A stretch of 64,000 nucleotides of DNA from Orbus sasakiae. Lineage in GTDB: Bacteria; Pseudomonadota; Gammaproteobacteria; Enterobacterales; Orbaceae. Of the stretch, positions 2 through 12,714 are shown one piece after another; the first letter of the stretch is position 1, and every line of letters starts with the position of its first letter. The notes below the pieces were generated by a model that saw nothing but the letters and a program-made list of their open reading frames with translations, was not told where the DNA came from and searched no databases. Made by a program: the position numbers and the translations under genes. The stretch spans positions 28,292 to 92,291 of the forward strand of contig NZ_BAABHY010000006.1 of NCBI RefSeq assembly GCF_039542345.1, written 5' to 3'.

Positions 2-361
2 GAGGAATTGAAGAAAGCGCTACAAAACAGTCGTGGACCTGGTAACTTTCGTAATCTACTAATGTATGCACCAAATGGTAAACCCGACGGATTAAAATTA
101 ATTCCAGTTGGCGAGGTAGCTGCCAAAGATAACTTTGCTGATATTAAATCCGTTAGCCAAGATGATATTTTAACGGCGCACCGAGTACCACCGTCATTGA
201 TGGGAATTACTCCTAAAAATACAGGTGGATTTGGCGATCCTGAAAAGGCATCAAAAGTATTTGCCCGTAACGAAATTAAACCACTTCAGGATAGATTTTT
301 ACAACTGAATGATTGGATGGGGGAGGAAATAGTAAGATTTAATTCTTATTCTCTTGAGTAA
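2..361 (+). CDS. Phage portal protein (P2 gpQ-like), C-terminal fragment; the gene starts upstream of the window
   Basis: Reading frame is open to the window edge. Contains the portal-family motif '...RVPPSLMGI...GGFGDPEKA'. Convergent with the gpA-side genes, as Q is in P2. Confidence 0.55.
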   Translation, partial: EELKKALQNSRGPGNFRNLLMYAPNGKPDGLKLIPVGEVAAKDNFADIKSVSQDDILTAHRVPPSLMGITPKNTGGFGDPEKASKVFARNEIKPLQDRFLQLNDWMGEEIVRFNSYSLE

Positions 362-380
362 ATAACCTAAAACGCTCTAT

Positions 381-406
381 AACGCCCATAATGGGCGTTT
401 TTTATT
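381..406 (+). terminator. Rho-independent terminator after the portal gene
   Basis: Hairpin aacgcccat/atgggcgtt followed by a T-run. Confidence 0.6.
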
Positions 407-669
407 ATCTATAGGGTTTATTGGAATTACTTAGATCGTTTAATTCTATTTAAATTTGATATGCCTGCATTGATTTTTTGATGCTATTTTTAAAGATTTA
501 CAGTGAAATTGCGCCGTTGAAACCCCACCCCACCCTCGCACTAAAAGTGTGTGAATTTGTGCAAAATTGCAAACCGCATAAAACAAGCCCTAGCAAAAGG
601 GCTTGAGCTGTTTTTGATCCTTTTTAGATCTTGCATTTTCGTGCAGTATAGCCGTGCAGTAAAAAAATT

Positions 670-846
670 TTAGCTATTTTCTTTTTTAGGTTTATCGATA
701 AGACACTCTTTTATTGGCTCCAGTAAATCTCGAATCCAAAATAGTGTTACATCCTTATCCCTTTCTGTTAGGTGTTCTGATTCAGTTACAACACGAATAA
801 GTAGCTCTGCTCGTTCAACTCTTTTTGCATTCTCTAATTCCTTCAT
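670..846 (-). CDS. Small hypothetical protein (58 aa), below the ORF-track threshold
   Basis: ATG preceded by GAGGTGA 7 nt upstream. Sits between the portal gene and the cargo cassette. Confidence 0.3.
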   Translation of the reverse strand: MKELENAKRVERAELLIRVVTESEHLTERDKDVTLFWIRDLLEPIKECLIDKPKKENS

Positions 847-1028
847 AGATAAATCACCTCAAAATTAATATTTAGTTTAACTTATCAAAAATAAGTAGTG
901 AGTTATCGCGCGATATAGAAATGCTAACGGATAAATACCTCAATTGCATTAGTTTAATCAATATCCATTTGTTTGATTAAATCGTTGATTTCTTAATTTA
1001 AAATTTGCTATTATAAAAAGTTTTGTTC

Positions 1029-1628
1029 TTAAAAATGCTCAACATGGGTGTTATATAATATTTTGGCAGATTGTTTTATAAGATAGTAGTATTCAACCGC
1101 CTCTTTCATTGTAGGTAGTAAACAATTTTTATCATGAGTTAGTTCATTTCTGCGGTTAGTAAGTGTAGAAATTATTTTAGAGTGATCTTCAGATATAAGA
1201 TGTTGCCAAGCTTGGAGCCTTTTTTTGTTATAAGGCCCTTCAAAAGTAATTAGAAATTCTTTATATATTTCAAACTGCTCTATTATTGCTAGTTTAGCAA
1301 TTACAGATTCAACTCTAGACCCGTCTTTGTTTCTTGGTGGAGACATAGGGGCAGTAACTCCACCATTTGCATTTTTGATAGGAGTATTTCCTATGACTAA
1401 ATTTGCAGCGACACTAAATTCTTTACTCATATTTAATATATATGGATATTCATGATTAATTTGTTCAGCATTTGCTGGAGCTGATAGACAAGGACCTTCT
1501 GTCCAGGCTAAATTATCCTTACCCAAAAATTTCCAATCTAGCATTTTTTCTGCTGAACGCGCATTATCGTAAACAAAACAAGCAGATAATAAGGCCTCTC
1601 CTGAATTTTTAATGTAATCCTCTATCAT
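1029..1628 (-). CDS. HEPN-motif protein (candidate RNase), second gene of the cargo cassette
   Basis: 199 aa with C-terminal 'RRNELTH' (R-x4-6-H, RN..H-type HEPN signature). Starts 9 bp after the upstream TM gene. Very AT-rich. Confidence 0.55.
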   Translation of the reverse strand: MIEDYIKNSGEALLSACFVYDNARSAEKMLDWKFLGKDNLAWTEGPCLSAPANAEQINHEYPYILNMSKEFSVAANLVIGNTPIKNANGGVTAPMSPPRNKDGSRVESVIAKLAIIEQFEIYKEFLITFEGPYNKKRLQAWQHLISEDHSKIISTLTNRRNELTHDKNCLLPTMKEAVEYYYLIKQSAKILYNTHVEHF

Positions 1629-1637
1629 TTTCTTAAC

Positions 1638-2780
1638 CTATTCATTATTTAATAATTCTTTTGGCAATTTATCATTTTCAACAAAAAACTTTAAGATAGG
1701 AAGTATATTGTTAATGTAATATGGGTTTTGATCAAATGCAGAAGAGGTATATTTAATATATAAAGATAATTTAAAATTTTCATTTAGATTTAATTTTAAA
1801 ATCTCGTTTTGAAAATTCTTGATTGTTAGATTTTCTTGTTCTAATTGAGTTAGGTAATCATTTTTTTTTGGTTCCTTTAAATTAGCTTTCAATTTATCTT
1901 CAAGATCATTTTTTTTATTTATATGCTGAAAATATGATGCAATTTTTATGAGTTGGATATCGTTTGTCATCATCATTGAAATTTGTTCTAAGTTTATATG
2001 TTCAAGAAATTTAAATTTATTTAAATATTTTCTATAGTCTTCAAATTTACTAATGGAGGATGGATTTCGTAATCCATTCATAGCAATTACATATAGTAAA
2101 TGTTCGGATATAAAAGAACGCAAAAGACCAGAATAATCATAAATACAACTAACATTGTTTTCATTATCATCAAGGTATTTTAAAAAACGATATAAAAATC
2201 TTAAATAAGCATTAATTGTATTATGTTTTCCTTCGGAAAAAATGCTCTCTAATGTTTTTTGTGTCCAGTTAAAATTGATAACGCCATCAGCTCTTCTAAT
2301 TCGAGATGTAGTTAATTCATTATAAATATTAGTAATATTTTCTGAAAAATCTTTTTGCAGGAAAAAAGCATTATGCTGTTCAAGCATTAATGTAAACATT
2401 CTATCAAAATCATTTTTTTCCGATTCTTTATCTTGTCTTTCTAGTTGTTTTTTTAGTTCTTTGTTTTGATTATGGTTTGTCCATAATAAAATGATTATTG
2501 TTATAAAAGTTAGAATTGGATTGAGAATACCACCTATGTAGTCCCCCATAGCTCCCCAATCTTCTTGGGTTGTCATAATATTATCTACTTTCTTAAAATA
2601 GTTTACATAATCAATTGCTATATTTAGTATCAATAAAAAACATATAACAATAAAAAAAATTGAAACAAGTCCAAACTCATATTTTTTATTAATCCAGATT
2701 CCAAACAAAGCAGTAATTGATACAACTACAACCAAGGAAATAGTAAAATTTAAATCACTCAATAAATTAAAAAACAACAT
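1638..2780 (-). CDS. Membrane protein (3 N-terminal TM helices plus a Lys/Glu/Asn-rich cytoplasmic domain), first gene of the cargo cassette
   Basis: 380 aa. Three hydrophobic helices in the first ~100 aa. No recognisable catalytic motif. Confidence 0.65.
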   Translation of the reverse strand: MLFFNLLSDLNFTISLVVVVSITALFGIWINKKYEFGLVSIFFIVICFLLILNIAIDYVNYFKKVDNIMTTQEDWGAMGDYIGGILNPILTFITIIILLWTNHNQNKELKKQLERQDKESEKNDFDRMFTLMLEQHNAFFLQKDFSENITNIYNELTTSRIRRADGVINFNWTQKTLESIFSEGKHNTINAYLRFLYRFLKYLDDNENNVSCIYDYSGLLRSFISEHLLYVIAMNGLRNPSSISKFEDYRKYLNKFKFLEHINLEQISMMMTNDIQLIKIASYFQHINKKNDLEDKLKANLKEPKKNDYLTQLEQENLTIKNFQNEILKLNLNENFKLSLYIKYTSSAFDQNPYYINNILPILKFFVENDKLPKELLNNE

Positions 2781-2800
2781 TCCAATACCTTATATTTGAG

Positions 2801-2829
2801 TTATAAAAAAGTAGCCCACACAGTGGGCT
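2801..2829 (-). terminator. Rho-independent terminator (minus strand) insulating the cargo cassette from the early operon
   Basis: On the minus strand: cagcccac-tgt-gtgggctg followed by TTTTTTAT. Confidence 0.5.
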
Positions 2830-2867
2830 GTTGGATTTTATATGGTTTTAGGTATTAAGTCACTTTG

Positions 2868-3068
2868 TTACTTAGCTTTTTTCATTACGCTGTATAGTAG
2901 ATCTGCAATGCAGCTTACTGCGATTATGAATTCGTTTTTATTTGTATGATCGGCACTTAATAGGAATCGGGCGAGTAGTTCGGCTTGTTCGAGTTTTGCG
3001 TAACTGTCTATGTTAATTTGAACTGTATCGTTAGAAGTTGCAATGTTTAAAATTGATTGGTTTTTCAT
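2868..3068 (-). CDS. Small phage hypothetical protein (66 aa from the internal ATG)
   Basis: ATG with an AAAAGGA RBS. The track ORF 2868..3158 probably carries an N-terminal over-extension. Confidence 0.4.
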   Translation of the reverse strand: MKNQSILNIATSNDTVQINIDSYAKLEQAELLARFLLSADHTNKNEFIIAVSCIADLLYSVMKKAK

Positions 3069-3311
3069 GACTAAATTCCTTTTGGGTTTAGATAATTTAA
3101 TCACCACCAGCACGCCAATACTGGGGGTGAACTGAACAAGGTTGGCGTACCGCCCCAAAAGATCACGGCGAGCCTTTCGGCTCCCTCATCCAGCCCACCA
3201 TAGAAAAGATGCAACTAGATTGTAAGCATAAAAATACCGCATTGAGCGGTTATGCTCTTTTGGGAATAATCCAAGACGCCAATCTTGACGTTAGATTTTG
3301 CTAACGTGCTT

Positions 3312-3491
3312 TTAATATATATCTGTTTGGTTTTTGTTGTCAACTTTTCCCTTAATTGCCTTTAAATGGTCAAGCGCTTTTTGTAGCTGATCCAGTGAAC
3401 AATTGCAGCTATATTGTAGTGAATTTAATTCGTTAATAATTTTTAAAATAGTTGCTGGTGGCGGTCTCGGTCTAAATCTTGGTATGGCCAT
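3312..3491 (-). CDS. Small hypothetical protein (59 aa) immediately downstream of gpA (orf91-like position)
   Basis: ATG 10 nt after the gpA stop, with a GGAGAG RBS. Cys-containing. Confidence 0.3.
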   Translation of the reverse strand: MAIPRFRPRPPPATILKIINELNSLQYSCNCSLDQLQKALDHLKAIKGKVDNKNQTDIY

Positions 3492-3503
3492 GTTGCTCTC
3501 CTT

Positions 3504-5672
3504 TTAAAATGAGAATTCAAAATCATCAAATGTACTGATTTTTAACGGTTTTTTAGTGCTATTTTGTCTGTTCTGTGGTGAATTACAGACGATAAGATGC
3601 ACTCCATTTAAAGTGTTATCTAATTTTAAGTATTGGTTTTGACTGATTTTTATACTTTCTCGTAAATAAAGTCGATTTACAGCCAGATCATCATCTGGAA
3701 TACCGATTATTTTTAGCTGTTTTTTTATTTCTTCTCGCTGATCGTCCGCATCATCTTTAAAATTCTGCGTACAGTTATTGACAGAACTCCAAGGCGTGCG
3801 TTCCGCACGATTTTTAAGGTCAAGAGCCTTGCTTGTTTGGCCTTTTTGGATAATCTTACATTTTATTAACCTGGTGCAAATGTATGACGTTAGCCCGACG
3901 ATAGGGGAAAACACACCATTGATTTTTTTGATTGGCTCTTCATATTGGTTGAGTTGCTCTTCATAAGATAGGCGAACGGCTAGATCTTTGCGTTTTACCA
4001 TAGGTCCACCTTGATGGATAGTGTAAGCAGCCCAATCGCCGATATCGGCAGAAGCAAGAACAGGATCGATCACGCTTTCATCTACTGTTTTATCTTTGAG
4101 CCGGCGCAACTCTCGCCAAACAGTAACAGGCGCACCGCCTATTTGTTGAAATTGTCTAATCTTCCATCTGCTTGCCCATGCGGTAACGGCTTTTGCCATA
4201 TTCTTTAAGTTTTGACCAGATTCATTATCGACCGCATCATCAAGTGCATAACCATCAATATTTTTAGATATATATTTTGCTATGTAACCTGTGGCACTCC
4301 CTTTTTCTTTCTCAATCATTTTGAATTCAAAACGGTTTTTAGCGGCTCCTTTTTCGTGACCATCTTCATCCATGGCGTAGATCCACATAATTTTAAATGC
4401 TTTGCTGATATCTTCGGGACGCATAAAAACAAGAATATGCCAATGAGGTGTTCCGTCGTGATGTGGTTCGGCAACTCGAAAACCAAAAACTTTGATATCT
4501 TCACGGGATAGTTTTGCTCGGATTCGTGACCACACTTTACATAAATAGGCTTGAGTATCTTGAGGCGTATTACCAATCCAATTTTCAACAAAGCCACCTC
4601 TTGAATAAACACTGTGATATTTAGATGGGGCGGTTAAAGTAATAAAAGCGCCACAATAGCCAAACTCTTCAGCAATATCTTCAAAACCACGCATACGATT
4701 CATTAACTCAACTCGGCGAATAGCTGGATTAGCAATGGATTTGTAAACTTGTAAATCAAGTGGGATCTGCTCGCCAGTTTCCTCATTTTCGATTGCCATT
4801 CGTTCAAGGTATTTACGATTTCGGCGTTTTTGTTCGTTGAATTCGTTGATACATGAACGGCTTGCGTATGGGCTGGCTTTAGCTTGAACTTGACCAACAG
4901 CAATGGCTAAATGTTCTTTTTGAGTATCACGGCGACGTTGCAATTTATTACGCCACCAATCTTCATTGGTGACTTTTGCCCATGCTTTTATGATGTTTTC
5001 ATTGGTGAGTTTGTCATTTTTATAATCAGCATAGTAGGGCGGTGTAACATTGATTCCGTTTAACTCTTTCAAAATGAGTGAGTAAATTTTGTGTTCGATT
5101 GAATTTTGGTTCACTTCATTAGCTGAAAGAGAAAACGAACTTTCATCCAGTTTTTGAGTGATTAAGTTATTAATATGGCGAGCAATATCGACACTTAATT
5201 TATTAATGCTTTCACGCTCGTATGTTGGCAACTTTTCAAACTCGGCACCAAATACGATAGTCAACGAACTTGGCTTATCTGCTTCATATTTTTGATTTAA
5301 AAGATCAAGTCGACCTTTGATATTTCCGCCTAAGGTTTTGCGTAAAAAAGTATTCGCAGCACGGCGACTTTTCGACTGAAATAAATCAATATATTTATTG
5401 GTAAAATAACTACTTAAATAGTTTGGCAAATTGCCAATATAGTTAGATCTAAAGGCATGATCTTCGTGGTCAATATTCCACAGTTTTATTTCATTATAGG
5501 AAATATCATCAGGAATTCTTTTAGCTACAATTGGCTTTGCTGTTGGCGTTCTATCCACTTTTTTATTTGGTAAGAATCGCCCAACATTTTCATAATAATC
5601 ACGCATAGCCACAAACAAGGAATATTTATCCTTGTTTGAGATTAATGGTAATTGTTGCGTGAATGAGACCAT
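3504..5672 (-). CDS. Phage replication initiation endonuclease, P2 gpA family (rolling-circle HUH nuclease)
   Basis: 722 aa. Contains 'HHDGTPHWHILVF', the HUH-type motif typical of the P2 A / phiX174 A superfamily. Size and position match P2 gene A. Confidence 0.85.
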   Translation of the reverse strand: MVSFTQQLPLISNKDKYSLFVAMRDYYENVGRFLPNKKVDRTPTAKPIVAKRIPDDISYNEIKLWNIDHEDHAFRSNYIGNLPNYLSSYFTNKYIDLFQSKSRRAANTFLRKTLGGNIKGRLDLLNQKYEADKPSSLTIVFGAEFEKLPTYERESINKLSVDIARHINNLITQKLDESSFSLSANEVNQNSIEHKIYSLILKELNGINVTPPYYADYKNDKLTNENIIKAWAKVTNEDWWRNKLQRRRDTQKEHLAIAVGQVQAKASPYASRSCINEFNEQKRRNRKYLERMAIENEETGEQIPLDLQVYKSIANPAIRRVELMNRMRGFEDIAEEFGYCGAFITLTAPSKYHSVYSRGGFVENWIGNTPQDTQAYLCKVWSRIRAKLSREDIKVFGFRVAEPHHDGTPHWHILVFMRPEDISKAFKIMWIYAMDEDGHEKGAAKNRFEFKMIEKEKGSATGYIAKYISKNIDGYALDDAVDNESGQNLKNMAKAVTAWASRWKIRQFQQIGGAPVTVWRELRRLKDKTVDESVIDPVLASADIGDWAAYTIHQGGPMVKRKDLAVRLSYEEQLNQYEEPIKKINGVFSPIVGLTSYICTRLIKCKIIQKGQTSKALDLKNRAERTPWSSVNNCTQNFKDDADDQREEIKKQLKIIGIPDDDLAVNRLYLRESIKISQNQYLKLDNTLNGVHLIVCNSPQNRQNSTKKPLKISTFDDFEFSF

Positions 5673-5684
5673 AGCTAATGAACC

Positions 5685-6509
5685 CTAAACCATATCTGGC
5701 GTTAATACGCCTATAATTTCTTTGGCTTGTTCTCGGTTGCCATTGGCGGCGACAGATCGCCGTGCTTGGATTGAATAAATTTTAAATTGTCGGAATAGGT
5801 AACGGGTATCTGATGTATCGTGATTAGAGATCACAGCACATGCGCCACGTTTTACAGCTTTATAAAGGTGGTAAGCTAATTGTTCCGTTTCGTTATAATC
5901 AAAAGTTGATGGTGTATACCCGTTAAAGCTAACGTCACCACCTAACGGCAAATAAGGGGGATCACAATAAATTACATCACCATTACTAGCGTAGTTAACG
6001 GTGTTTTTATAATCACAGCGAAGCAGTTCAATTGAAAAAGGAATTTGATTCAGCTTTTCTGAAAAAAGCATTAATTCATTAGTAGGATTGTATATATTTT
6101 TATGTTTACCCTCTGGAACATTAAATTGACCACTTTTATTGTATCGGCATACACCATTAAAGCAGTGGCGATTTAAATAGATAAATAATGCAGCTCGTTT
6201 ATTTGTTTGAGATGAGTTATTAAATAATTCCCTTGCTTCATAATAATTAGGGTTTTGACTAAAATAGAAATCAACAAGCGAGATTAATTTTTGTGGCTCT
6301 GCTTTTAACCGGTTATAAACATTGATCAAATCCTGATTAATGTCCGCTAAAAGATACTGTTTATAATTGGTATTGATAAAAACATTACCGCCACCAACAA
6401 AAGGTTCAATCAACCGTTCGCCTTTTGGTAAATACTGCAATAATTGAGGAATAACTCGGCCTTTTCCGCCCATCCATTTAAGGAAAGAGCGATTTGTTTT
6501 AGTTTGCAT
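5685..6509 (-). CDS. dam: DNA adenine methyltransferase, Dam ortholog (D12 class)
   Basis: 'FLKWMGGKGRV...EPFVGGGNVF...NRHCFNGVCRYN...CDPPY' aligns with E. coli Dam motifs by eye. Confidence 0.85.
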   Translation of the reverse strand: MQTKTNRSFLKWMGGKGRVIPQLLQYLPKGERLIEPFVGGGNVFINTNYKQYLLADINQDLINVYNRLKAEPQKLISLVDFYFSQNPNYYEARELFNNSSQTNKRAALFIYLNRHCFNGVCRYNKSGQFNVPEGKHKNIYNPTNELMLFSEKLNQIPFSIELLRCDYKNTVNYASNGDVIYCDPPYLPLGGDVSFNGYTPSTFDYNETEQLAYHLYKAVKRGACAVISNHDTSDTRYLFRQFKIYSIQARRSVAANGNREQAKEIIGVLTPDMV

Positions 6510-6525: not shown

Positions 6526-7326
6526 TTAATAGTTACTATCTTTTATCCAAATACATTCCTTACGGATGATTTGGCCTTTTTGACCTGCTGCGCGTGCTGG
6601 TGAAGTTCTTTTTTGCCAGACAAATAAATAGTCGTTATATAAATCGCAATCGTATCCAGAAATAACCACGCTTCCGGACAGATTATTTGCTGAAATTAAT
6701 AATTGTTCGTGGTCGTCAATTGCCATTTCGTATTGATAAACATTGGTTGATGTTCTTGTTTCGCTCATGTAGGGCGGATCTAAATAGAACAAGGTTTTTG
6801 GTGAATCGTGTTTTTGTAATAGTTCCAATGCCGGAATATTTTCTATAATCACGCCAGTTAAGCGTTGGCAAATAAATGCTAAGTTGTTAGGTATTTTTGC
6901 CCATACTGTTGCATCAGTGGTTTTGCCTTTTCTTGTGCTACCCGAAAAGCCAGTACAACCTTTAATGCAACCAGTTGAAGAAAAAGACATAAATGACCTA
7001 ACTAACATTCGGCGAGCCTGTTCAACTTGCTGCGAACCTAAACTATTACCGGCATCAAAATACTCACTGCGGTGAAATGGTGTTAATGCAACTAAATCAA
7101 TTAGTTGCTTGGAAAGAATCGGATCCCTTAATACCTTAAATAAATTGACAACATCATTATTAAGATCGTTATAAACCTCATTACCCAATCTTGGTTTTTG
7201 AAGTAATACGCCAGCAGCACCGCCAAAGGCTTCAACATAAATTTCATGTTTAGGAAAATGGCTAATAATCCAAGGGGCTAACCTAAATTTACCGCCAAAA
7301 TATCTTAATAATGGATGTTTGATCAT
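6526..7326 (-). CDS. Second N6-adenine DNA methyltransferase (D12 class, divergent from Dam)
   Basis: 'RYFGGKFRLAPWI...EAFGGAAGV' (motif I) and 'DPPY' (motif IV). Confidence 0.75.
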   Translation of the reverse strand: MIKHPLLRYFGGKFRLAPWIISHFPKHEIYVEAFGGAAGVLLQKPRLGNEVYNDLNNDVVNLFKVLRDPILSKQLIDLVALTPFHRSEYFDAGNSLGSQQVEQARRMLVRSFMSFSSTGCIKGCTGFSGSTRKGKTTDATVWAKIPNNLAFICQRLTGVIIENIPALELLQKHDSPKTLFYLDPPYMSETRTSTNVYQYEMAIDDHEQLLISANNLSGSVVISGYDCDLYNDYLFVWQKRTSPARAAGQKGQIIRKECIWIKDSNY

Positions 7327-7529
7327 TTTGTTAATCTTTCCTTAATTTGCTGACAATCAACACACAACTTACAGCCTTGTAGGAGTTGGCGGCGTTTTTC
7401 GGGAATGGGGTCGCCACACTCGAGGCAGTTAATTGCCGATTCGCCTACAAATACGGTTTGCCGTTTAACTAAAATGTTATCGATTTCTTGTTGTGCTAAA
7501 TCATTGGCACGGTCGATTGTGTCTCGCAT
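7323..7529 (-). CDS. TraR/DksA-family C4 zinc-finger protein (phage)
   Basis: 'CLECGDPIPEKRR...CKLCVDCQ' C4 arrangement. 68 aa. 4-nt overlap with the upstream gene. Confidence 0.7.
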   Translation of the reverse strand: MRDTIDRANDLAQQEIDNILVKRQTVFVGESAINCLECGDPIPEKRRQLLQGCKLCVDCQQIKERLTK

Positions 7530-7762
7530 TAGGCATGCGCCTCGTGCTTTTCGTTTTGCATTTTTGTGGCTTCTTGCTCTAAAAGTTCGGCTGCTTCATG
7601 TGGCGATAAAAAATTGATGCGGATGTGACCTGCTAAACGTTCTAAACGAGCGGAAAATACATCACATAAACCTTGTTTTGTTTCTGTTTTGGCTTGATTT
7701 AATGCCATTAGTAATGCATCACCTTCAAACCCATTAAGCGAAGTCATTGGATTGTTCGACAT
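7529..7762 (-). CDS. Phage hypothetical protein
   Basis: ATGA overlap with the downstream gene. Lies in the early operon. Confidence 0.45.
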   Translation of the reverse strand: MSNNPMTSLNGFEGDALLMALNQAKTETKQGLCDVFSARLERLAGHIRINFLSPHEAAELLEQEATKMQNEKHEAHA

Positions 7763-8162
7763 GATTAGCTCCTTTTGCTATGTGAGCGACAAGATCCGCT
7801 CGTTGTTGTAACTGGCGATGTAAATCGCAATTCATTTTTTTTGCTTCAATATGTACTTTTTGGAAATCTTCTTTTTTGCAGTTAACAAACTGATTAACAA
7901 TGATTTGTAATCGTTTAATGCCAACCGACAATTTTTTGACATCACTATCACTTAACTGTGACCAACTGGATTGGTCTGTCTCTAAGCCGGATGCAATTAA
8001 TAAATAGCGTTTTTGATTAGGTGATAAACGTTCAAAAGCCAAACGGGCCAAACTGCGATCATTAACAATCAGTTCTCGACATGCCCGAATATGTTCAAGG
8101 TTATTCATTCTTTGGGCTTTGGCTTGCGGTGTTTCTTGAATAGCCATAAAAATCACCTTCAC
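7734..8162 (-). CDS. Phage early protein, unknown function (in the position of a P2 B-like gene)
   Basis: 142 aa. Lies in the early operon between the Cox-like gene and gpA. Confidence 0.5.
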   Translation of the reverse strand: MKVIFMAIQETPQAKAQRMNNLEHIRACRELIVNDRSLARLAFERLSPNQKRYLLIASGLETDQSSWSQLSDSDVKKLSVGIKRLQIIVNQFVNCKKEDFQKVHIEAKKMNCDLHRQLQQRADLVAHIAKGANHVEQSNDFA

Positions 8163-8172
8163 AAAATAATTA

Positions 8173-8307
8173 TTAACGTTGAGTTAACTTAACCGCTTTG
8201 CCGTTTGGTTTTTCGATCCAACCTTTGCGGTTATGGTTGTTGGTTTTGATAAAAATTAAAGCAGGCTTATCGGCTGCTTTTGGACTTAAATAGATTGCGT
8301 GGCTCAT
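8173..8307 (-). CDS. Small phage protein (44 aa), translationally coupled (ATGA) to the Cox-like gene
   Basis: AGGA RBS. Start overlaps the upstream stop. Occupies the P2 orf78-like position. Confidence 0.3.
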   Translation of the reverse strand: MSHAIYLSPKAADKPALIFIKTNNHNRKGWIEKPNGKAVKLTQR

Positions 8308-8549
8308 GATTTATCCTCGTCGAGTTTTAACTCTGGGTTAAATGCTTTTGCACCTTCCAAAGTTAAGGCTGTCATGTTGATAAGCGTTGTAGAACGGTCG
8401 TACTTACCAGTGATTTTCTTTTTACGAATAGGGAGCTTACCTTCGCTAATGTACTTTTTAACGGTGCGAGGATTCATGCCCGACACACGAGCAAACTCGT
8501 CAACCGTGACATAAGGTGATGAAATAGCTATTGATATTGTTGGCGTCAT
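8304..8549 (-). CDS. HTH DNA-binding regulator (Cox/Apl-like early-operon regulator)
   Basis: 81 aa. 'TVDEFARVSGMNPRTVKKYISEGKLP' is an HTH. First gene of the leftward early operon, divergent from the repressor. Confidence 0.55.
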   Translation of the reverse strand: MTPTISIAISSPYVTVDEFARVSGMNPRTVKKYISEGKLPIRKKKITGKYDRSTTLINMTALTLEGAKAFNPELKLDEDKS

Positions 8550-8669
8550 AGTGCATTATTCCTAGTTAGATGATTTTATATGTTCAAATAGGTAAAATCT
8601 AAATTCAAGTTAAATATATTCTAAATTGAATTTAGAGTCAACGCCTTTTTATTAACTTTAGGTTTGATT
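8550..8669. promoter_or_regulatory. Immunity-switch intergenic region with repeated half-sites (putative operators)
   Basis: Half-site ctaaatt occurs twice direct (8600, 8621) and once inverted (8629-8635), forming a perfect 7+7 palindrome ctaaattGaatttag. AT-rich divergent promoters. Confidence 0.4.
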
Positions 8670-9029
8670 ATGAAAATTAATTTTGAAAGTGGTGGTGCGG
8701 AAGTTATAGATAGAATTATTAAGGCCTATGGTTTTAGGACAAAATTGGAATACAGTAATTATTTAGGCACATCTTCGGCTAATATGTCTGCACGTTATAA
8801 AAAAGGTTTTTTCCCTTCAGACTTAGTTGTCCGATGTATGGCCGAAACGGGCGCAACATTGGAATGGCTTGTTACTGGTGAGGGCGAGTTTTCACCAAAC
8901 GAACCAACCCCAAAAGAAACCGTTCTATCGGATGAAACACTGGAAAAACTTGAACGATTAGTCACCCTAAAAGAAAAGGGCGCAATAACCGAACAAGAGT
9001 TTAATGATCTTAAAGCTAAGTTGATTTGA
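8670..9029 (+). CDS. CI-type phage repressor with a C-terminal SHOCT-like domain
   Basis: The N-terminus resembles the Phage_CI_repr HTH. C-terminal 'LEKLERLVTLKEKGAITEQEFNDLKAKL' is a SHOCT-like motif. An AGGT RBS precedes ATG 8670; the track ORF starts at an upstream TTG. Confidence 0.65.
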   Translation: MKINFESGGAEVIDRIIKAYGFRTKLEYSNYLGTSSANMSARYKKGFFPSDLVVRCMAETGATLEWLVTGEGEFSPNEPTPKETVLSDETLEKLERLVTLKEKGAITEQEFNDLKAKLI

Positions 9030-9075: not shown

Positions 9076-10173
9076 ATGAAAAAATTCGTATTTAAGAAAG
9101 ATAAAAAGCATTGGCTGAGGATGGTCGAAAAACGTAATGATAGAAGAAAAGAGTCAAAAAATGATAAGCATTTAAGCACAATAGGAAGCAAATCACTTTA
9201 TGCTAATTCCAAAAAACGTGAAAAAGTTATTATGCCTAAAATTGTAGCACCCAGGATAATGTTGCTAAAAGTTAGTGAATATTACAATCAATTTATTAAT
9301 TTCATTAACGACTTTGAAAGACTATGTAAAAAAGCTAATGAGTTAAAATTTAGATTTGAATTAGACTTGAGCCATATAAAAGAGATGTATGGAGATGCTT
9401 GTGTATTATTCATTGCATCAGTTGACAGCATGTATCAACTATATCCAAATTTAAAAATCAAAATAAGGAAGCCAATAAAAGACATTACCTCTCGATATGA
9501 TCCTCATGCCGTCTTTTGTCACCTTGGTTTTTATAAATTATTTGGCCTAGAATACTCAGCTGATTGTTCAAGTGAGAATGTAGTATGTTGGAGGTATGTA
9601 ACTGGTGATTTAGCTGATGGGCAATTAACAGAACCTTTGATGAAAACATTAAATGATATGGGAATTAATACAAAGGAATTATATAGAAGCTGTATTGAAG
9701 GTATTGCTAATGCTGTTGAGCATGCATATATTCCACAGATTAAGTCTTCTCGTGATGTTAGAAATAAAAAATGGTGGATGTTATTAGCTAAATTGGATGG
9801 TAAATTACTATTATTTGTTTATGATCGTGGGCATGGAATTCCATCTACTTTGGAGTACACCCAAGATCAAAAAATTCTAAAGGAAATATGGAAAAAACTA
9901 AAACAACTAGTATCACCAACAAAGGATTGCTTATATATTAAGGCCTCAATGTTAGTAAAAGAAACTAGAACTGAATTAAATTATAGAGGTAAAGGAACAG
10001 GAGACATAAAATCATTTATAGACAAAACTGAAGGTAATCTTTTGAGAATATACTCAAGTAGAGGCACAATGATTTATAAAGGTGAATCTACGCCATCATT
10101 TTGCTATGATAACTCCATATCTATTAATGGTACTCTATTGCAGTGGAGTATCAAATTGCAGGATACTATATGA
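9076..10173 (+). CDS. GHKL (HATPase_c) domain protein, SpoIIAB/RsbW-like Ser-kinase/ATPase fold in the C-terminal half
   Basis: N-box 'EGIANAVEHAY', G1 box 'YDRGHGIP', G2 box 'GKGTGD'. N-terminal ~190 aa unassigned. Confidence 0.55.
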   Translation: MKKFVFKKDKKHWLRMVEKRNDRRKESKNDKHLSTIGSKSLYANSKKREKVIMPKIVAPRIMLLKVSEYYNQFINFINDFERLCKKANELKFRFELDLSHIKEMYGDACVLFIASVDSMYQLYPNLKIKIRKPIKDITSRYDPHAVFCHLGFYKLFGLEYSADCSSENVVCWRYVTGDLADGQLTEPLMKTLNDMGINTKELYRSCIEGIANAVEHAYIPQIKSSRDVRNKKWWMLLAKLDGKLLLFVYDRGHGIPSTLEYTQDQKILKEIWKKLKQLVSPTKDCLYIKASMLVKETRTELNYRGKGTGDIKSFIDKTEGNLLRIYSSRGTMIYKGESTPSFCYDNSISINGTLLQWSIKLQDTI

Positions 10174-10497: not shown

Positions 10498-10929
10498 ATG
10501 ACTACATCTGATTGGATTTCATTATGTTCATTGTTTATCGCGTTAATTGGAGTTCCTTTAGGATATTATTTAGGTTGCAGAAGTGCAAGACATGCAGCAT
10601 ATAATGACATGATTGATACTTTGGAAAGCATAACTCAGACAACATTTAATCTATTTTTAGAAATTTATACCAAACAGTCTGTAAATGATATTAAAGATTA
10701 CCATTTGATGATTGCTTATTATAAAAAGATACAAAGACATTGTTCCGAACTGAGAACAATGAAAAAAATCGCAATGCATAACAAAATAGACAATTTGTTG
10801 ATAGAAGTTAAACAAATAATGACAGATAAATTATTTCATGCAAATGAAGCAATAAAACAAAACTCACTTAGTGAGTTAATAGTGAAAATGGATGAACTGA
10901 ACGCTTTATACACAAAACGTTTTTATTAA
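10498..10929 (+). CDS. Small membrane-anchored protein (1 N-terminal TM), third gene of the moron
   Basis: Start 1 nt after the upstream stop. N-terminal hydrophobic helix 'ISLCSLFIALIGVPLGYYLG'. Confidence 0.5.
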   Translation: MTTSDWISLCSLFIALIGVPLGYYLGCRSARHAAYNDMIDTLESITQTTFNLFLEIYTKQSVNDIKDYHLMIAYYKKIQRHCSELRTMKKIAMHNKIDNLLIEVKQIMTDKLFHANEAIKQNSLSELIVKMDELNALYTKRFY

Positions 10930-10979: not shown

Positions 10980-11999
10980 ATGACAGTACGCAAACAAAAA
11001 TCAGGTAAATGGTTATTTGAAAAATACCTTGATGGTGGTCGTAGAGTTCGTAAGACTTTTGCAACCAAAGGCGAGGCATTAGCTTATGAAAATTATTTAG
11101 AAGAACAAACCAACGAAAGGCCTTGGTTAGGTGAAAAGATTGATCGCCGGCGTATTTCTGATTTAATTGATACTTGGTTTAATTCTCATGGTAAAGCGCT
11201 TGATAATGGTGAAAAGGTAAAGGGTATTTTAACTTTTATCTGTGAGTGTATTAATAATCCGTTAGTTGATGATTTTACTGCTAAAACATTTACCAATTAC
11301 CGTAAAAAAAGAATGTCTGGCGAATTTTTCCGGACAGAAAAAAAGAAAACTGTATCACTAAACACCTTAAATAAAGAGTTAATCTATTTTAGGGCTGTTT
11401 TTAATGAATTGAAACGCCTTGGCGAATGGGATAAACCAAACCCACTAGAGAACATCAAAGTCTTTAAACTTGATGAAACAGAGATGGCATGGCTAACCCA
11501 CGAGCAGATAGATCATCTCTTAAAGGAATGTGCTAATAGCCAGGCAGAACATCTTTTACTTAAAGTACAAATTGGATTGTCAACTGGTGCCCGATGGGGT
11601 GAAATCAACAACCTTACGGGCTTAAATGCTATTGATAATAAAATTACTTATGTAAAAACCAAAGGCCGTAAAAATAGAACAATTCCTATATCGAAACAGT
11701 TATTTGATCGAATACCAAAAACACAAGGTAAGCTGTTCCCAGATGGCGATAATATTAGTGCATTCCGAAAAGCTTTAAATCGATGTAATATCTCTTTACC
11801 TGATGGACAACTAACACACGTTCTAAGACATACATTTGCAGCCCATTTTATGATGAATGGTGGCAATATTCTTGTATTACAAAAAATACTCGGACACCAA
11901 GATATAAAAGTCACTATGAGATATGCTCACTTTGCTCCAGATCACTTTGAGCAAGCGATTGAGTTGAACCCTTTGAATAAACAAAATATTAGCAGGTAA
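10980..11999 (+). CDS. int: Tyrosine integrase, P2 Int family
   Basis: 'LSTGARWGEI', 'HVLRHTFAAHFMMNGGNILVLQKILGH...MRYAHF' align with P2 Int catalytic motifs (R..HxxR..Y). Confidence 0.9.
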   Translation: MTVRKQKSGKWLFEKYLDGGRRVRKTFATKGEALAYENYLEEQTNERPWLGEKIDRRRISDLIDTWFNSHGKALDNGEKVKGILTFICECINNPLVDDFTAKTFTNYRKKRMSGEFFRTEKKKTVSLNTLNKELIYFRAVFNELKRLGEWDKPNPLENIKVFKLDETEMAWLTHEQIDHLLKECANSQAEHLLLKVQIGLSTGARWGEINNLTGLNAIDNKITYVKTKGRKNRTIPISKQLFDRIPKTQGKLFPDGDNISAFRKALNRCNISLPDGQLTHVLRHTFAAHFMMNGGNILVLQKILGHQDIKVTMRYAHFAPDHFEQAIELNPLNKQNISR

Positions 12000-12003
12000 C
12001 ATT

Positions 12004-12714
12004 ATGGATAAAACTTATAATATTTATTGTGATGAATCATGTCATTTAGAACATGATAACCAAACGGCAATGGTATTAGGTTCGGTATGGTGTCCATTCT
12101 CGAAAAGAGAGGAAATATCTAAGCGAATTAGAGAGATAAAGCAAAGAAATAATATGTCACCTCATTTTGAAATTAAGTGGACAAAAGTTAGTGAAGGTAA
12201 TTTACGTTTATACATGGATATTATTGACTATTTTTTTGACGATGATGATTTGTATTTTAGGGGCTTAGTGGTTCCAAATAAAAATGTTCTAGACCATGAA
12301 AAATTTAATCAAACGCATGATGAATGGTATTACAAAATGTACTTTTTATTATTGAAAATGATATTTGAACCATGCAATAAATATAATGTATATATTGATA
12401 TTAAAGATACCACTGGCAATACTAAAGTTATAAAATTACATAATATATTATGTAATAGTGCTTATGATTATTCACATAATATTATTCAAAAAATTCAAAG
12501 AATTCACTCCCACGAGTCTGAACAGTTACAAATAGCAGATCTTATTATTGGTGCTTTATCTTATCTATTTAGAGGGCTTGCAGATAATAAAGCCAAAGTA
12601 AAAATAATTGAAAGGATAAAACAACGTACACAATTAAGTTTAACAAAAAACACATTACCTAAAGCAAAAAAATTTAATCTTCTAATATGGGATAAAAAAG
12701 AGGGAGATGAATAA
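12004..12714 (+). CDS. DUF3800-like protein (cargo gene between int and att)
   Basis: N-terminal 'YNIYCDESCHLEHDN' and a later 'EQLQIADLIIG' resemble DUF3800 conserved motifs (recalled from memory, unverified). Confidence 0.45.
   Translation: MDKTYNIYCDESCHLEHDNQTAMVLGSVWCPFSKREEISKRIREIKQRNNMSPHFEIKWTKVSEGNLRLYMDIIDYFFDDDDLYFRGLVVPNKNVLDHEKFNQTHDEWYYKMYFLLLKMIFEPCNKYNVYIDIKDTTGNTKVIKLHNILCNSAYDYSHNIIQKIQRIHSHESEQLQIADLIIGALSYLFRGLADNKAKVKIIERIKQRTQLSLTKNTLPKAKKFNLLIWDKKEGDE

Follow-up and report, generated by a model that had tools for sequence, protein, structure and literature searches.

Adjoining AbiC/AbiP-family and HEPN-type genes in the gpA-portal interval of a P2-like prophage of Orbus sasakiae, probably two separate single-gene modules

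AbiC and AbiP are single-gene abortive-infection systems of Lactococcus, and the group to which they give their names combines one or more transmembrane (TM) helices with an extramembrane domain that is helical and biochemically uncharacterised; AbiC reduces capsid protein production, and AbiP binds RNA (2026 review, PMC13064643). Among the HEPN proteins, a survey published in 2013 included the 'Ribo L-PSP-HEPN' family, which bears Rx4-6H and is a distant relative of AbiD/AbiF (PMC3710099). In published surveys, the interval between gpA and gpQ is the main defence hotspot of P2-like phages (PMC9122126, PMC13586616). The present analysis concerns two adjoining genes, coding for proteins of 380 and 199 amino acids (aa), which were found in this interval at the left end of a 64,000-nucleotide (nt) stretch of Orbus sasakiae DNA (contig NZ_BAABHY010000006.1, positions 28,292 to 92,291; "the window" hereafter denotes this whole stretch). 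P2 itself carries tin and old in the gpA-portal interval. A preliminary description of the sequence had taken the two Orbus genes for a two-gene anti-phage cassette. According to the reading favoured here, to which a probability of approximately 60% is given, the hotspot holds instead two independent single-gene defence morons, separately acquired and merely adjoining.

The left end of the window corresponds to the early arm of a P2-like prophage with P2 gene order, carried by an insect-gut bacterium. The features of the interval are as follows.

8..361, plus strand: 3'-terminal part of the gpQ-like portal gene, bounding the hotspot on the right; PF04860 match below threshold on this fragment
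1029..1628, minus strand: 199-aa gene, stand-alone HEPN-like protein, predicted RNase
1134..1154, minus strand: RRNELTH, an R-x4-H motif of the HEPN catalytic type, residues 159-165, at the end of the third core helix
1638..2780, minus strand: 380-aa gene, AbiC/AbiP-family membrane protein
1983..2228, minus strand: putAbiC Pfam domain, residues 185-266
2475..2765, minus strand: TM region, residues ~6-102, from hydropathy
2803..2829, minus strand: G+C-rich hairpin AGCCCAC-TGT-GTGGGCT with a T-run, resembling an intrinsic terminator; end of the early operon
2835..2863, minus strand: promoter-like site GTGACT-17-TAAAAT, directly upstream of the hairpin
3504..5672, minus strand: gpA replication gene, left boundary of the hotspot; PF05840, expectation value (E) 4e-106

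The flanking gpA and portal genes, together with the published surveys, identified the slot as the P2 defence hotspot, as had been proposed. On the minus strand, gpA is followed by two small open reading frames (ORFs), the 380-aa gene, the 199-aa gene and a 58-aa ORF, and the end of the portal gene, on the plus strand, converges on these cargo genes as in P2. The portal fragment showed 91% DNA identity to the portal region of a sister prophage (locus L007), where the full gene was called Phage_portal. The 380-aa and 199-aa genes thus lie between gpA and portal, in an interval whose content varies among relatives, as is expected of hotspot cargo.

Both ORFs are on the same strand, with a spacer of 9 nt and no terminator seen between them, and a terminator-like hairpin lies upstream of the pair; this layout was found as first described. 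The hairpin stem (2829..2813) is followed on the minus strand by ACTTTTTTAT, and hairpin and T-run end 22 nt upstream of the 380-aa start codon. Nine terminator-like sites were counted in the region 300..3600 (1.6 expected from shuffles), and a weaker version of the hairpin is present in L007, where the promoter-like element is kept as GTGACT...TAGAAT. Judging from its sequence, GTGACT-17-TAAAAT may be a promoter belonging to the cargo genes themselves. The transcription start predicted from this site falls at about the first base of the hairpin (2803..2863, minus strand), and the hairpin could serve as a terminator of early-operon read-through, as an attenuator, or as a 5' stabilising stem-loop of the cargo mRNA. 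The 380-aa gene had a guanine-plus-cytosine (G+C) content of 0.240 and the 199-aa gene one of 0.330, the flanking phage genes ranging over 0.35-0.39 and the window as a whole standing at 0.379; the earlier characterisation of both genes as extremely AT-rich was therefore appropriate for the former but not for the latter. The gap between the two genes (9 points) is as large as their gap from the surroundings, which suggests separate acquisition histories.

Family membership of the encoded proteins

The 380-aa protein, in which no recognisable motif had previously been seen, matched PF16872 above its gathering score (32.9 bits vs. 22) over residues 185-266; Pfam names this family putAbiC, 'putative phage abortive infection protein', and a precomputed match to it is also on record for the identical database protein (P0096). 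Both the 380-aa and the 199-aa protein are on record, with identical sequences, from Orbus sasakiae. A match of the 380-aa protein to phrog_8999 was obtained as well (E 3e-20). An exhaustive phmmer search of 1.84 billion cluster representatives returned 2143 matches at E<=1e-3, most of which align with approximately residues 40-268, comprising the last two TM helices and the putAbiC domain. The three N-terminal TM helices of the preliminary description were recovered as hydrophobic segments by hydropathy (residues 6-32, 32-63 and 80-102), yet the first of them (residues 1-30) had a low predicted local distance difference test score (pLDDT) and was common only to the closest homologue, the wider family having two TM helices. 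At the start of the last TM helix, a family-wide motif W-G-x-x-G-D-Y-I-G-G-I-L-N-P was found, with G79, G83 and G84 invariant and G76, D80, L86, N87 and P88 at least 90% conserved among 46 sequences. The AlphaFold2 (AF2) model was all-helical (pLDDT 81.8), its TM helices running on into a 70-residue helix, and this succession of TM helices and a helical extramembrane domain agrees with the architecture of the AbiC/AbiP group.

Among 46 aligned relatives, the PADLOC model for lactococcal AbiP (PDLC02351) was matched by nine (best E 1.2e-9) and that for AbiC (PDLC02343) by three (best E 2.7e-7); at the level of sequence, the tie of the 380-aa protein to these models appears to be transitive only, via its relatives. 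A profile search of the 380-aa family against PDB sequences found no relative, and tblastn searches with the protein in a phage collection and a plasmid collection gave no match, probably as a result of low-complexity filtering and divergence. A HEPN_Swt1 Pfam match (E 0.018), located in a K/E-rich stalk, was judged spurious. Literature searches on putAbiC/PF16872 and RiboL-PSP turned up only the 2013 survey of HEPN proteins and the 2026 review cited above as relevant. By its sequence, the 380-aa protein is a divergent member of the AbiC/AbiP group, an already named single-gene abortive-infection kind, rather than the unrecognised "membrane sensor" for which it had been taken.

In the 199-aa protein, the RRNELTH motif sits 34 residues from the C-terminus. 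Approximately 95 homologues were retrieved (E<=1e-3); the family has about 100 known members, from Gammaproteobacteria, Alphaproteobacteria and some metagenome-assembled genomes of Bacteroidota and Kiritimatiellae. Among 40 of these homologues (33-65% identity), R159, N161, L163 and H165 were invariant and R160 and E162 at least 90% conserved; since RxNxLxH is invariant throughout this set, RRNELTH is not a chance occurrence of R-x4-H. The AF2 model (pLDDT 94.9, predicted template modelling score 0.89) contains the HEPN core helices at residues 2-29, 106-127, 147-165 and 174-198, forming a four-helix up-down bundle like that of solved HEPN domains, with a conserved insert of approximately 75 residues (30-105) between the first and the second helix. 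PF18735 (HEPN_RiboL-PSP) was matched by 20 of the 40 relatives at E<=0.01 (best 5.7e-8). The invariant motif residues, the model and these matches bear out the HEPN-type assignment made from the motif in the preliminary description. Scans of the protein itself against PADLOC, PHROGs and NCBIfam gave no match, PADLOC matches to the 40 relatives were scattered and marginal, a profile search of the family against PDB sequences found no relative, and no match was obtained by tblastn in the phage collection. From sequence and model, we conclude that the 199-aa protein in all likelihood belongs to the HEPN proteins, on a divergent branch close to RiboL-PSP-HEPN, as a sister group rather than a clear member. 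The family is unnamed and lies outside PADLOC coverage.

Genomic contexts of the two genes and their interpretation

Both gpA and the flank on the portal side are approximately 90% identical in DNA between the window and the sister prophage L007. An AbiC homologue (57% identical) occupies the corresponding position in L007, between the same small ORFs, and no HEPN gene is present there. The alignment of the two prophages breaks inside the 3' end of the AbiC gene and resumes 12 nt past the HEPN stop codon, and the 10-mer GGTTAAGAAA, which precedes the HEPN ATG in the window, is still present after the AbiC stop codon of L007; these breakpoints and the retained 10-mer indicate that the HEPN gene is an ORF-sized indel. 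The reverse situation was observed in two P2-like prophages of Gilliamella (L001 and L038, 87% identical to each other), in which a 64%-identical HEPN gene occupies the same slot, beside the portal gene, and follows a gene for a protein with a signal peptide and DUF4875; the HEPN ORF is the only part with DNA homology to the window. The DUF4875 gene (L001 2023-2580, L038 4407-4970) has been maintained with the HEPN gene over approximately 13% DNA divergence.

On chromosome 2 of Vibrio aestuarianus, the HEPN gene is the sole ORF of a cassette of approximately 735 bp within an array of about 20 attC-type repeats. Neighbouring cassettes of this locus (L006) code for a DUF3644 protein and a HEPN_Cthe2314 protein (4124-5320 and 7738-8529), so that several HEPN-type cassettes are gathered in one integron array. 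Further homologues were found after the tail-fibre genes of a lambda-like prophage, alone between two toxin-antitoxin (TA) pairs of an Acinetobacter plasmid, within an array rich in TA genes, and at conserved positions of the chromosome in Acinetobacter pittii and Psychrobacter. In the lambda-like prophage (L002), a 318-aa gene without a Pfam match (6720-7676, minus strand) is convergent with the HEPN homologue and contains ARNERAHG (R-N-x3-H); it may be a second HEPN-type gene of that moron region.

When the AbiC-family profile was run against all ORFs of the 30 other HEPN-bearing loci, an AbiC-family neighbour was found in none of them, and an all-against-all comparison of the neighbours within 2.5 kb of the HEPN gene revealed no recurrent partner family. 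Conversely, the HEPN family was absent from the four AbiC-family contexts analysed (L007 and three further loci). In Shewanella, a canonical HEPN_RiboL-PSP gene was located 3.4 kb from an AbiC homologue; it was not detected by the profile of the 199-aa family and was taken as co-residence in an island, not as pairing. Co-occurrence of AbiC and HEPN genes across genomes, as expected of an obligate two-gene system, was therefore not found, while the genomic evidence showed AbiC-group genes occurring singly, the L007 homologue alone in the hotspot and other members with unrelated neighbours. The cassette proposed in the preliminary description did not survive this comparison: on sequence grounds, the pairing is not conserved, and the two genes appear to be single-gene modules that move separately and do not constitute a new two-gene system.

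If both genes are defensive, analogy with AbiC and AbiP of Lactococcus suggests that the 380-aa protein would be anchored in the inner membrane by its N-terminal helices and that its helical cytoplasmic domain would disturb a late step of the infecting phage; the corresponding steps of the analogues are capsid protein synthesis for AbiC and, for AbiP, RNA binding and the switch from early to late transcripts. The 199-aa protein would dimerise, bringing two R-N-x3-H motifs together. In uninfected cells it would be kept inactive, probably by the conserved 75-residue insert, given that no antitoxin gene travels with the HEPN gene; upon infection, the putative trigger, it would cleave RNA (tRNA, mRNA or rRNA) and the growth of the infected cell would be arrested. 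A broader proposal, put forward tentatively and at slightly less than even odds, is that the 199-aa family constitutes a previously unnamed, self-contained single-gene HEPN anti-phage system, which would need no antitoxin, would use the insert as a built-in phage sensor or autoinhibitor, and would be transferred, as a module the size of one ORF, among hotspots of P2-like and lambda-like prophages, integron cassettes and plasmids.

Three other explanations were weighed against that of two independent morons. The two genes might constitute one two-component abortive-infection system, in which the membrane protein senses infection, or is a membrane effector, and controls or cooperates with the HEPN RNase. 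The short spacer and shared strand, the single hairpin and promoter-like site upstream of both genes and the lack of a terminator between them are all compatible with such a system, and both genes belong to kinds associated with abortive infection; the pairing, however, was found in this genome only, L007 keeping AbiC alone, and in the 30 other loci, the one-gene integron cassette included, the HEPN gene stands alone or follows unrelated genes. AbiC-family genes also occur elsewhere without a HEPN partner, AbiC and AbiP act as single genes in Lactococcus, and the two Orbus genes differ in G+C, all of which makes this explanation unlikely. We attach a similarly low probability to the view that only the AbiC-like gene is defensive and that the 199-aa HEPN is a selfish addiction or toxin-like element, or an accessory gene of RNA metabolism, hitch-hiking on mobile elements. 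Homologues between type II TA pairs on the plasmid and in the TA-rich array, others beside housekeeping genes at the conserved positions in A. pittii and Psychrobacter, and the missing PADLOC match would be accounted for in this way; but no cognate antitoxin gene accompanies the HEPN gene, the integron cassette has space for one ORF, dedicated defence or moron positions are occupied in three different prophage types, and single-gene HEPN proteins have repeatedly been validated as defence, as for SadR (PMC13590631) and Esos (bioRxiv 10.1101/2024.07.02.601686).

It is very improbable, and more so than either of these, that the HEPN domain is a non-catalytic module binding RNA or nucleotides, or that both genes are silent cargo behind a terminator. 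Some HEPN families do act by binding only (PMC3710099), and a hairpin with a T-run 22 nt before the first start codon leaves no space for a promoter downstream of it. Nevertheless, the family-wide conservation of R-N-x3-H argues for catalysis, both ORFs are intact, and the AbiC homologue has been kept at 57% protein identity in L007 together with the promoter-like element.

Several observations weigh against the reading of two independent single-gene defence morons. With respect to the 199-aa protein, a Foldseek search of the PDB with its model gave no significant match (best E 0.66), HEPN proteins being the top-ranked entries, and its own PF18735 score was under the threshold (17.7 vs. 28.4 bits). 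The 380-aa protein itself had no match to the PADLOC models of AbiC and AbiP (none in PADLOC at E<=1), and a fold search with it was uninformative; the PADLOC check suggested in the preliminary description thus returned neither protein of the window, its AbiP and AbiC models being matched by some relatives of the 380-aa protein. Several loci of the HEPN family lie among ordinary metabolic genes and not in obvious defence islands, which weakens guilt by association. In the window, the 9-nt gap, the common strand and the single hairpin mean that the two genes are almost certainly co-transcribed, and local functional interplay is possible. A HEPN nuclease without an antitoxin would need some other means of being silenced, and a defence role for both genes is predicted from sequence, models and analogy.

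Should the reading of two independent morons hold, the locus would illustrate clearly, in a natural setting, how single-gene defence modules are mixed with ORF precision in the gpA-Q hotspot of P2, three related insect-gut prophages representing three states (AbiC alone, AbiC with HEPN, and DUF4875 with HEPN). The comparison also flags a compact, antitoxin-less HEPN family that is outside PADLOC and small enough for an integron cassette; such a family would enlarge the set of minimal HEPN defence genes by one and raise the question of how a nuclease of this type stays silent. No new kind of system is implied, the AbiC-like gene being an ordinary member of a known, mechanistically obscure family.

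Other features of the prophage

Three further genes delimit the early region of the prophage.

8304..8549, minus strand: Cox-like helix-turn-helix (HTH) gene
8664..9029: CI-type repressor, to the right of the early genes
10980..11999: integrase, to the right of the early genes

Reading leftward on the minus strand, the Cox-like HTH gene is followed by a TraR-type zinc-finger gene, two D12-class adenine methyltransferase genes and gpA. The two Dam methylases, the TraR-like and Cox-like proteins, CI and the integrase are consistent with a P2-like prophage. The tandem methyltransferase genes occupy 5685..6509 and 6526..7326 (minus strand) in the early operon; at the same place, L007 (386-2243) has a gene of the PAPS-reductase family and one methyltransferase gene. 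Directly after gpA, two genes of L007 (4220-5441), a protein-kinase-like gene of 191 aa (PF07714/PF00069) and an ORF of 74 aa, have no counterpart in the Orbus prophage, where the corresponding segment of the window (3710..3348) has only a 59-aa ORF. Given that these two genes are present in only one of the two prophages, the hotspot has at least two independently variable sub-slots.

On the portal side, the 58-aa ORF (670..846, minus strand) matched phrog_8554 (E 4e-6) and is conserved in L007 with 91% identity at the DNA level; a bidirectional terminator-like hairpin comes after it at 584..605. Situated between the cargo genes and the portal gene, this ORF is near the expected cos position. 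At the opposite end of the early region, two AT-rich ORFs lie between the CI repressor and the integrase (9076..10173, plus strand, 365 aa, G+C 0.31; 10498..10929, plus strand, 143 aa, G+C 0.28), and a Pfam scan gave no match for either. The CI-integrase interval is likely a second place where this prophage carries cargo or morons; a survey (NAR 2026) mentions minor hotspots located between integrase and primase. Directly after the integrase, a gene for a DUF3800 protein (12004..12714, plus strand; E 3.5e-14, G+C 0.27) is possibly cargo at the integrase-att end of the prophage.

Closest described systems

The 380-aa protein resembles lactococcal AbiC and AbiP in its TM helices and all-helical domain, in the PF16872 match, in its occurrence as a single gene (L007) and in its location on a mobile element. 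It differs from them in being very divergent, without a PADLOC AbiC/AbiP match of its own, in having one more hydrophobic segment at the N-terminus and approximately 110 additional residues at the C-terminus, the latter common to only a few homologues, and in being encoded in a Gram-negative P2-like prophage and not on a lactococcal plasmid.

For the 199-aa protein, likenesses to several HEPN groups were found. With RiboL-PSP-HEPN (PF18735) it shares the four-helix core and R-N-x3-H near the C-terminus, and half of its family matches the model; unlike members of that group, it scores below the threshold and has the insert of approximately 75 residues between core helices 1 and 2, and the canonical Shewanella member escapes the profile of the 199-aa family. 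The contexts described for RiboL-PSP-HEPN (endoRNase L-PSP fusion, ParB operon; Anantharaman 2013) were seen in none of the loci examined, the 199-aa protein being single-domain. The best structural neighbours of its model were HepT/MntA (HEPN-MNT) type VII TA proteins (5yep_B, 7ae2_A and 8xdj_A), in which the motif likewise lies approximately 35 residues from the C-terminus; the 199-aa protein is approximately 60 residues longer, with its large insert, and no MNT nucleotidyltransferase antitoxin was found beside the HEPN gene, which has no recurrent neighbour and fills the Vibrio cassette as its only ORF.

In logic, the 199-aa gene resembles the single-gene HEPN defences AbiD/F, AbiJ/SadR and Esos. 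AbiJ/SadR (Abi_C, PF14355) are also single-protein HEPN RNase defences without a separate antitoxin, but they have distinct N-terminal sensor domains and belong to another HEPN family, the 199-aa protein having no PF14355 match. Esos, from the chromosomal integron of Vibrio cholerae, is likewise a single small protein in which nothing but a HEPN-like domain is recognisable, and a homologue of the 199-aa protein is, in the same manner, a one-gene cassette in a Vibrio integron array; this comparison was made by description and not by sequence, and Esos may be an unrelated HEPN lineage. To P2 tin/old the two genes bear no sequence relationship, Old being an ABC-ATPase/TOPRIM protein and nothing of that kind being present here; the likeness is one of place and arrangement, with prophage-borne exclusion genes stacked in the same slot, from gpA to cos/portal.

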